Source: a virus (lineage: Duplodnaviria > Heunggongvirae > Uroviricota > Caudoviricetes). From it: a DNA stretch of 8,487 nt. Every line of letters starts with the position of its first letter. Within the stretch, counting starts at the first letter, position 1. Both the position numbers and the translations under genes were made by a program. The stretch spans positions 1 through 8,487 of the IMG/VR virus record IMGVR_UViG_2675903650_000007; one strand, written 5' to 3'. Under the pieces are notes generated by a model, which was not told the DNA's origin, did no database searches, and worked only from the letters and a program-made list of their open reading frames with translations. Of the stretch, positions 6,444 to 8,487 are shown piece after piece.

Positions 6444-6635
6444 ATGAGTACAGTCCTTTCCCCGATAATTTCAGAATTTGAAACAATCGAACAAGAAAAC
6501 AGCTATAACGAATGGTTACGCACCAAAGTGGCAGCAAGCCTCGCAGACCCCCGTCCTGCAATTCCGCATGACGAAGTAATGGCTGAAATGGAAAACCTTA
6601 TTGCGCAAATAGCTTCGACGAACAGGAGTGAGTAA
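6444..6635 (+). CDS. Small antitoxin (PaaA2-like) of a ParE-type toxin-antitoxin pair (63 aa)
   Basis: Strong RBS GAGGAGG 6 nt upstream of the ATG. Small acidic protein (..SEFETIEQENSYNEWLR..) whose stop overlaps the toxin start (TAATG at 6633-6637). The sequence resembles my recollection of PaaA2 from E. coli O157 prophages. Confidence 0.75.
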   Translation: MSTVLSPIISEFETIEQENSYNEWLRTKVAASLADPRPAIPHDEVMAEMENLIAQIASTNRSE

Positions 6636-6925
6636 TGCTGCCCATTTTATGGCTACCTTCTGCGCGTGATGATTTGCGTCAGATCGTAGCCTATATTGCC
6701 AAGGAAAACCCTCCCGCTGCACGTAGACTAAAAATACGCATTGAAACATCAGTTTTGTCACTTACTGAACACCCTTACCTGTATCCACCAAGCGAAAGAG
6801 CTCTAGGCCTTCGTGAGATAGTGACCCATCCTAACTACATAATACTTTACCGAGTAACAGCATCTAACATCGAGATCGTAAATGTAGTTCACTCACGAAG
6901 GCAGTATCCAAACAAAAGCTGTTAA
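6635..6925 (+). CDS. parE: ParE/RelE-superfamily toxin (ParE-like; 96 aa)
   Basis: Size and motif pattern typical of ParE toxins (LP-LW..A..DL..I..YIA.-NP.AA..L...I......L...P.-G......L-LRE.V-...YI--YRV....IEI-.V-HSRR). Translationally coupled to the preceding antitoxin gene. Confidence 0.8.
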   Translation: MLPILWLPSARDDLRQIVAYIAKENPPAARRLKIRIETSVLSLTEHPYLYPPSERALGLREIVTHPNYIILYRVTASNIEIVNVVHSRRQYPNKSC

Positions 6926-7885: not shown

Positions 7886-8227
7886 TTTATCCTCCATTGA
7901 GGTTACTGGTTGAGAATGGAGACCTCTCGTGACAGCGTGTGGTCGTGCGCCGGACACGGATAAGAATCCGGCACTGACAGTTTACTGAAAGGATATTTCC
8001 CTGAAAAGTCAGACCATAACGCGAAAGCGCACGGCGAGGTAGCTGGTTCATAGATAGCCTGTCGTTAAATTTTCGTCGACCGTGCGCTTCCGGTTGTGGC
8101 AATCCGCGAAATGGCGCGGCGGTAAGTATGGCTGGGGTTTCCTCCATTGCTCCAGAAAATGCACCGGGTTGTCAGGTTGACCATACGCTTAAGTGACAAC
8201 CCCGCTACAACGCCCTCTGTTATCAAT

Positions 8228-8285
8228 TTTCTGGTGACATTTGGCGGTATCAGTTTTACTCCGTGACTGCTCTGCCGCCCTTTTT
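8228..8285 (+). ncRNA. dicF: DicF-like small regulatory RNA
   Basis: tttctggtgacatttggcggtatcagttttactccgtgactgctctgccgcccttttt matches the ~53-nt DicF sRNA of the E. coli Qin prophage almost base for base, from memory with about one difference, including the GC-rich 3' stem and U-tract. Confidence 0.8.
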
Positions 8286-8290
8286 AAAGT

Positions 8291-8442
8291 GAATTTTGTG
8301 ATGCGGTGAATGCGGCTCAGCGCACGCGGAACAGTTAAAACAAGCGGTCTTTTACGGGCGTAACGGGAATGCTCTGTATCCGGCGTTAATTGTTAACTGG
8401 TTAACGTCACCTGGAGGCACCAGGCACCGCATCACAAAATTC
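8291..8442. repeat. 18-bp perfect inverted repeat enclosing 116 nt, immediately 3' of DicF
   Basis: GAATTTTGTGATGCGGTG (8291-8308) is the exact reverse complement of CACCGCATCACAAAATTC (8425-8442). On a DicF read-through transcript this would form an 18-bp dsRNA stem. Confidence 0.7.
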
Positions 8443-8487
8443 ATTGTTGAGGACGCGATTGTCACGAACGGTGCAATAGTGATCCAC

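Follow-up and report, generated by a model that had tools for sequence, protein, structure and literature searches.

The long stem downstream of DicF probably closes an STnc100-related RNA domain and coincides with a known RNase III processing site

Introduction

Directly behind the small RNA DicF, the DNA of a tailed-phage record (IMG/VR IMGVR_UViG_2675903650_000007) carries a long inverted repeat, and the question raised by this locus is what the repeat does there. It could act as a double-stranded stem in RNA, mark the ends of a small inserted element, or control how much transcription reaches the next gene; all of these had been put forward in an initial annotation of the DNA. In the following, the window is the whole stretch of DNA that was analysed, 8,487 nt in length.

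Two 3' ends of DicF have been described, one produced by termination, which gives an RNA of 53 nt, and one produced by RNase III acting on the full-length dicBF mRNA, which gives an RNA of 72 nt (PMC5069750 and PMC9438474, citing Faubladier et al. 1990). Both the 72-nt figure, which has the precision of a gel, and the RNase III dependence are taken here from these two secondary citations of the 1990 work. A later study assigned just one DicF end to RNase III, the 5' end of a 190-nt species, made no mention of a downstream cut, and described 1,608-nt transcripts that span ydfABC-dicFB-ydfD (PMC10448788). Processing by RNase III just 3' of DicF has thus been documented since 1990, and the stem flagged in the window adds little to this when it is considered alone. 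We therefore describe the stem together with the RNA that it encloses and with its relatives in other prophages and phages.

Results

The Rfam model of DicF (RF00039) matched the plus strand of the window at 8229-8280 with 77 bits, as compared with a gathering score of 48. The K-12 annotation puts one more base on the 5' end of DicF, and alignment with K-12 dicF accordingly places the 53-nt sRNA at 8228-8280, followed by the U-run of its terminator at 8281-8285 (feature 8228-8285, plus strand). The left arm of the repeat begins 10 nt past the DicF end, at 8290, so the initial annotation was correct in placing the repeat directly 3' of DicF. The stem is located on the DicF strand, past the DicF terminator and ahead of the next gene, in a spacer that is orthologous to the dicF-dicB spacer of K-12.

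A repeat search gave a perfect inverted repeat of 19/19 nt, with arms at 8290-8308 (TGAATTTTGTGATGCGGTG) and 8425-8443 (CACCGCATCACAAAATTCA) and 116 nt between them. It is the longest perfect inverted repeat in the window at a gap of up to 300 nt, and the longest inverted repeats in 200 dinucleotide-preserving shuffles measured 9-14 nt as against the 19 nt observed. The repeat had been reported as an 18/18 match at 8291-8442 that was far beyond chance; this is confirmed, and was understated by one outer base pair. In RNA, fold prediction added G8289-U8444 and A8288-U8445, which gives a helix of 21 bp (8288-8308 with 8425-8445). Folding of the region with DicF and the repeat had been suggested as a check, and the 21-bp stem was present in both the minimum free energy (MFE) and the centroid folds of 8229-8459 (-87.3 kcal/mol, z = -4.6). 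We refer to this closing helix as P1. Its 5' strand (8288-8308, plus strand) contains the perfect DNA arm 8290-8308 and the putative RNase III cut 8299/8300, and its 3' strand (8425-8445, plus strand) contains the arm 8425-8443 and the predicted staggered cut 8435/8436.

The conservation of the arms was examined by scanning IMG/VR and a genome collection with an anchor on the DicF 5' motif, so that the search was blind to the repeat. It returned 159 matches; those from the genome collection were mostly chance matches in unrelated phyla, the usable ones being from Escherichia, Shigella and a few MAG contigs that have this spacer as well (e.g. L026 and L030). Every true DicF copy retrieved had the left arm directly after the terminator. 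Among the approximately 108 DicF-linked copies in the standard register, 24 had a perfect stem and only a handful a mismatch. Wobble pairs were seen as G-U at pair 16 (35 copies), as U-G at pair 15 (23 copies) or at both pairs (20 copies), and a full double change from C-G to U-A occurred in one copy. The common arm variants were C-to-T changes at left position 15 and right position 4, with at least one of them present in 78 of the 108 copies, and a bulged A, or an A-C mismatch four pairs in from the outer end of the stem, occurred in a minority of copies. Since the common wobbles pair only on the plus strand, and would be A-C mismatches on the minus strand or in a DNA cruciform, the variation is of the RNA type. 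C-to-T is the commonest mutation, and part of the G-U pattern in the arms could for this reason be neutral drift. The stem was also kept where the downstream gene is not dicB, including the kilR gene of Rac, and the spacer was found in 4632 of 5426 complete E. coli genomes (~85%). Thus, in the comparison with the spacers of K-12 and related prophages, which had been named as the test of the stem, the arms stayed paired as a pair across the approximately 108 copies.

The sequence between the arms had been described as containing further palindromes, one of them centred on GTTAAC. This palindrome is real and forms a 10-bp hairpin (8382-8391 with 8399-8408) with the loop GUUAACU, but the interior is in fact a conserved five-helix RNA akin to STnc100. 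At a permissive threshold, the Rfam STnc100 model (RF02076) matched 8292-8438 with 37.4 bits (E 4e-7), below its gathering score of 47. The corresponding copies from K-12, P7, D6, Klebsiella phages and Rac scored 34-43 bits against the same model, and when IMG/VR was scanned for the motif of the 3' hairpin, more than 120 loci were retrieved, with two or three copies in some of them.

RNAalifold predictions and pair counts on two alignments, taken with the Rfam model, delimited an STnc100-like structured RNA domain at 8309-8424 on the plus strand. Alignment A2, which consists of 51 diverse copies and takes in a copy with a published primer sequence, showed compensatory changes in 8 of 19 consensus pairs and had 31 invariant columns, in support of the STnc100 consensus helices P1, P2 and P5. 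The motifs invariant in the 51 copies were GGUGAAU, CU..GCG and UCACC.GGAGGCAC..GGC.CC. In alignment A3, which holds the 41 sequences of the DicF-type subfamily, a five-helix structure was paired in 98.6% of cells and 10 pairs showed double changes, whereas shifting the partners by one to three columns, as a control, left 29-46% paired in the same 41 sequences. The five helices of the subfamily fold are P1, P2 (8312-8316 with 8322-8323 and 8325-8327), the base of the variable arm P3 (8328-8334 with 8374-8381), P4, which is the GUUAAC hairpin, and P5 (8410-8414 with 8420-8424), all on the plus strand. The segment in which the window differs from K-12 is the variable arm, and the loop and junction sequences are nearly invariant across the family copies.

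By its predicted structure and its invariant motifs, the 116-nt interior is a divergent relative of STnc100; by the Rfam threshold it is not a member. According to published work, STnc100 and PasD are sRNAs that stand alone in the late region of phages and associate with Hfq, with a function that is not established (bioRxiv 10.64898/2026.05.13.724894). We found no statement of the relationship between the interior and STnc100 in the literature searched, and no title or abstract linking STnc100 and DicF. An Rfam-based annotation of EDL933 contains 11 STnc100 and 4 DicF genes, none of them adjacent (PMC5331693); standard Rfam annotation misses the structured RNA enclosed by the stem because of its sub-threshold score. 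ARAGORN found no tRNA or tmRNA in 8000-8487.

We also observed that the 5' arm ends on its inner side in GGUGA (8305-8309), which could pair either with CACC of the 3' arm (8425-8428) or with UCACC just before P5 (8406-8410). CACC occurs three times within 22 nt in the region 8406-8428 of the window, and a pairing through GGUGA and CACC that competes with P1 and P5 is conceivable.

The length of P1 distinguishes the copies from each other. Ordinary STnc100 copies have a covarying closing helix of 6-9 bp, most often 8 bp, as compared with 19-21 bp in the DicF-linked copies. The Klebsiella-phage lineage of the subfamily has its own P1 of 14-21 bp with compensatory changes, and in the P1-like phages P7 and D6 the closing helix is only 8-9 bp. 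In these counts the outer pairs of P1 were determined by a script, as a gap introduced by MAFFT in the 3' arm put the outer stems of the DicF-linked and the Klebsiella-type copies out of register. The long stem is thus a lineage-specific extension of P1, to 14-21 bp, in the DicF-linked, the Rac (kilR) and the Klebsiella-phage lineages.

The two groups also differ in what follows the module. Of 121 copies of the DicF-type subfamily, 118 have an ORF that is preceded by a Shine-Dalgarno sequence and begins 28-41 nt past the inner end of P1, whereas the next ORF of ordinary STnc100 copies lies at a median distance of 264 nt. The one ordinary copy that was read through its 3' flank (L102) has a terminator-like hairpin and a U-run after the module. 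The ORFs downstream of the subfamily are small and varied, and their products include DicB, KilR, a TerB-like TciA, a Phd-like antitoxin, and peptides of 40 and 67 residues. In Rac, a DicF-like hairpin (39.1 bits with the Rfam DicF model, below the gathering score) is followed by the long-stem STnc100-like unit and then by kilR. The three-part arrangement recurs in a second prophage type, with kilR as another cell-division inhibitor.

Several further observations were made while these loci were read. The Rac prophage of E. coli ET210 (L378 651-894) carries the Rac-type order, with a bulged A in the stem. The module of P7 (L160 1304-1388 and 1501-1616) and D6 (L161) lies in the ban operon, between tRNA genes and tciA (TerB-like), and just upstream of it there is a tRNA-Sec-like sequence that scored 46.6 bits in P7 and 43.1 bits in D6, with a gathering score of 47. 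The Klebsiella-phage lineage comprises L277, L283, L308 and about 90 other IMG/VR loci; in the representative loci that were read, the RNA lies upstream of a small ORF, mostly one of 40 residues (MKDFARVPTGNQ...), and in the one locus scanned with Rfam (L162) no DicF was detected upstream of the module. Copies of the ordinary STnc100 type occur two or three times within 0.3-1 kb on some phage contigs (L169 2310-3366, L213, L175, L192, L205 and L223), and these clustered copies are often spaced regularly by approximately 484 nt.

We then compared the position of the stem with the published ends of DicF. When counted from the DicF 5' end at 8228, nucleotide 72 is 8299, which is position 10 of the 19 in the left arm and falls in the middle of the helix. 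The K-12 counterpart of the 72-nt end, 1649453, likewise falls within the left arm of the MG1655 repeat (arms 1649444-1649462 and 1649573-1649591), and the K-12 spacer folds into an equivalent helix of about two turns with two G-U pairs. The results showed that the stem 8288-8445 is the orthologue of the K-12 processing site described in 1990 and is in this sense already known. The proposal that a long double-stranded stem is cut by RNase III and is linked to the DicF 3' end is thus supported, with the 72-nt end as given in the secondary citations falling at arm position 10/19.

Table S1 of Gordon et al. 2017 lists position 1649470 of NC_000913.3 as 'dicF-dicB', flagged as known, with 0 + 0 reads in the wild type and 26 in the rnc mutant. 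This rnc-dependent position sits 8 nt inside the loop of the MG1655 stem. The signal is weak (26 reads) and represents a loss of coverage in the wild type, which argues weakly against a stable excised domain in exponential phase.

A second long stem lies upstream of DicF. It was found by folding and as an inverted repeat, is imperfect, and has approximately 22 bp (8014-8099, plus strand). A 190-nt RNA with its 3' end at 8280-8285 would start at 8091-8096, inside the 3' strand of this stem, and 8014-8099 is therefore the likely place of the second cut by RNase III in the literature, which gives the 5' end of the 190-nt DicF precursor. That site is distinct from the stem 8288-8445, and DicF is bracketed on both sides by long stems of the RNase III type.

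A dicB-like gene had been expected just beyond the window. In intact relatives (K-12 and AR_0017) dicB does follow, and begins 2 nt after the position that corresponds to 8459, but in the window the end of an IS100 element follows from 8460 instead. The alignment with K-12 and AR_0017 identified the Shine-Dalgarno sequence GAGGA (8449-8453) and the nucleotides that separate it from the dicB ATG in intact homologues (together 8449-8459, plus strand). Positions 8456-8487 are 100% identical to the DNA directly upstream of istA of IS100, at a place where the IS interrupts an IS66 transposase gene; from this identity, 8460-8487 (plus strand) was assigned to the left end of IS100 (IS21 family), which replaces the start of dicB and bounds the RNA element without being part of it. 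Homology to intact spacers ended at 8459 in all E. coli genomes listed. As no match among the closest complete E. coli genomes in this list extends past 8459, none of them showed the IS100 junction. Since the IS100 end lies between the dicB Shine-Dalgarno sequence and the start codon, dicB is separated here from its Shine-Dalgarno sequence and its promoter.

In another part of the window, a relB/relE-type toxin-antitoxin pair, annotated in the identical region of AR_0017, has its counterparts in the ORFs 6444-6635 and 6635-6925. The pair is placed between the prophage repressor region and a DUF1391 (ydfA-like) gene.

Discussion

The findings are best accounted for if the stem closes an STnc100/PasD-related domain on the read-through transcript and is itself the site of the RNase III cut that gives the 72-nt DicF end, and we consider this to be highly probable. 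The stem, its conservation as a plus-strand helix, the fit of the 72-nt end, and the fold and family of the interior come from the present analysis, whereas the RNase III dependence is taken from the literature.

On a plus-strand transcript that passes the DicF terminator, the arms would pair into the 21-bp P1 of a 116-nt multi-helix domain, and at this length P1 is long enough to serve as a substrate for RNase III. A cut between 8299 and 8300 would produce the alternative 72-nt 3' end of DicF. RNase III cuts leave 2-nt 3' overhangs, and a cut after 8299 would by this rule have its partner between 8435 and 8436. Three RNAs would result: (i) DicF with a 19-nt single-stranded tail, which could be trimmed back to the terminator hairpin, (ii) a folded RNA of approximately 136 nt (8300-8435) that keeps a 9-bp P1 and thereby has the usual length of the STnc100 family, and (iii) a downstream mRNA that starts at A8436 with a 5'-monophosphate, 13 nt before the Shine-Dalgarno sequence. 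We infer the position of the second cut, as we do any effect on the fate of the freed RNA or on the expression of what follows it (dicB, with kilR taking its place in Rac).

The stem could instead be chiefly the P1 of a cis-acting leader that governs the translation or stability of a small, often toxic downstream gene (dicB, kilR, tciA and others) by way of its fold or of a factor that binds it, with RNase III being secondary or serving as an entry point for decay. The close spacing between P1 and an ORF with a Shine-Dalgarno sequence in 118 of 121 copies, as opposed to the median of 264 nt in ordinary STnc100 copies, is what a leader would show; the module is also kept while the downstream genes vary, and the near-invariant loop and junction sequences suggest a specific partner. 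However, the Shine-Dalgarno sequence lies outside the fold and is unsequestered in both the MFE and the centroid structures, and no ligand or protein is known. The copies in P7 and D6 work with a P1 of 8-9 bp, so that its lengthening needs an explanation of its own, which recognition by RNase III offers. We regard the leader as a rather unlikely main role of the stem, although it is partly complementary to the RNase III explanation and does not exclude it. That the stem acts as a transcription terminator or attenuator and limits read-through into dicB is very unlikely. The helix is very stable and stands between DicF and the next gene, but there is no U-tract after its 3' arm (UUGUUGAGG), the 116-nt structured loop is unlike that of an intrinsic terminator, and the published 1,608-nt transcripts cross ydfABC-dicFB-ydfD (PMC10448788). 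A scan of 7900-8487 for promoters and terminators found nothing; this is a weak negative, as it also missed the DicF terminator, the hairpin of which has an internal loop. The suggestion that the repeat controls the transcription reaching a downstream gene thus found no indication, with no U-tract after the stem and an IS100 end beyond it in place of dicB.

The readings in which the repeat acts as DNA fare no better. The perfect 19-bp arms with their abrupt ends resemble the terminal inverted repeats of a miniature transposable element, here a 152-bp unit inserted between dicF and dicB, and related units do occur in several phage contexts. There is, however, no target-site duplication, as the flanks (TTTTTAAAG on the left and TTGTTGAGG on the right) contain no direct repeat, and there is no empty site, none of the approximately 108 DicF-linked copies being without the unit. 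Each prophage has one copy in a fixed syntenic position, and an nhmmer search for dispersed copies with the unit found no extra one in the DicF loci, the second match in each locus being a reverse-strand palindromic match of the unit to itself. The arms vary by wobbles or compensatory changes, as in RNA, and in relatives the arms shrink to a covarying 8-bp helix, unlike ends that are bound by a transposase. The small inserted element proposed in the initial annotation thus fails on the absence of a target-site duplication, on the lack of any DicF copy without the unit and on the RNA-type variation, and we consider it extremely improbable. It is just as hard to believe that the repeat acts as a protein-binding palindrome, a cruciform or a recombination site, or on a minus-strand transcript. 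The repeat is perfect in the window and both strands fold equally well, but at least one plus-strand G-U pair is present in 78 of the approximately 108 homologues, and this is an A-C on the minus strand and a mismatch in a cruciform. In addition, a simple operator would not have its halves anywhere near as far apart as 116 nt, the covariation of the interior is of the plus-strand RNA type, G-U pairs included, and no minus-strand ORF or promoter-like site was found here.

If the stem does close the domain and is an RNase III site, a third functional product may be encoded in the dicF-dicB spacer and in the equivalent Rac spacer before kilR, namely an RNA of the STnc100/PasD family of approximately 136 nt that is freed by RNase III. 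We put this forward as a tentative possibility with the odds against it. If it is true, the module would be a portable, RNase III-gated RNA or leader on prophage genes for cell-division inhibitors, with a function of its own that is exerted by the binding of a partner or in trans, and its excision would be akin to the release of rRNA from precursors, achieved through a purpose-built extension of the closing helix. The mechanism predicts defined RNA ends and an rnc-dependent RNA of approximately 136 nt. Prophages of the Qin and Rac types both have the combination of a DicF-like sRNA, a long-stem module and a small toxic gene, and modified versions of it are found in P1-like and Klebsiella phages. 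This context may help work on DicF, DicB and KilR, and the module offers a possible handle on how toxic genes such as dicB and kilR are kept in check.

The nearest known system is the dicBF processing site of the K-12 Qin prophage, which is the same locus, with 92% identity to the window over DicF and the spacer. The arms are alike except that K-12 has two G-U wobbles where the window has a perfect 19-bp repeat; the window differs further in the variable arm P3, and its dicB is cut off by IS100. STnc100 and PasD of lambdoid and Stx prophages share with the window element the multi-helix junction closed by P1 and the invariant motifs, and both are prophage-borne. They differ in the sequence type of P2, which is GCGGCU in the window and CCCCCU in STnc100, and in P1, which is about 8 bp in STnc100 as compared with 19-21 bp in the DicF-linked copy of the window. 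STnc100 is also a stand-alone RNA, whereas the window element has no terminator of its own and in its subfamily a small ORF follows directly; Hfq association and base-pairing in trans belong to the literature on STnc100 and PasD only.

More distant parallels are found among RNase III substrates. In the processing stalks of rRNA operons and at the intercistronic sites of phage T7, RNase III cuts a long-range helix of similar length, about 20 bp, with a 2-nt stagger, which separates the products. The window element resembles these in having a long-range helix of about 20 bp around a structured RNA, which would separate the products of one transcript, but it is much smaller, with a domain of about 116 nt inside, and its upstream product is an sRNA and not an mRNA or rRNA. 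At the RNase III sites of the early-left operon of phage lambda (N leader and sib), cleavage alters the fate of neighbouring genes, toxic ones included. These are likewise RNA stems of a lambdoid early operon, as in the window, with no similarity in sequence or structure to the stem described here.
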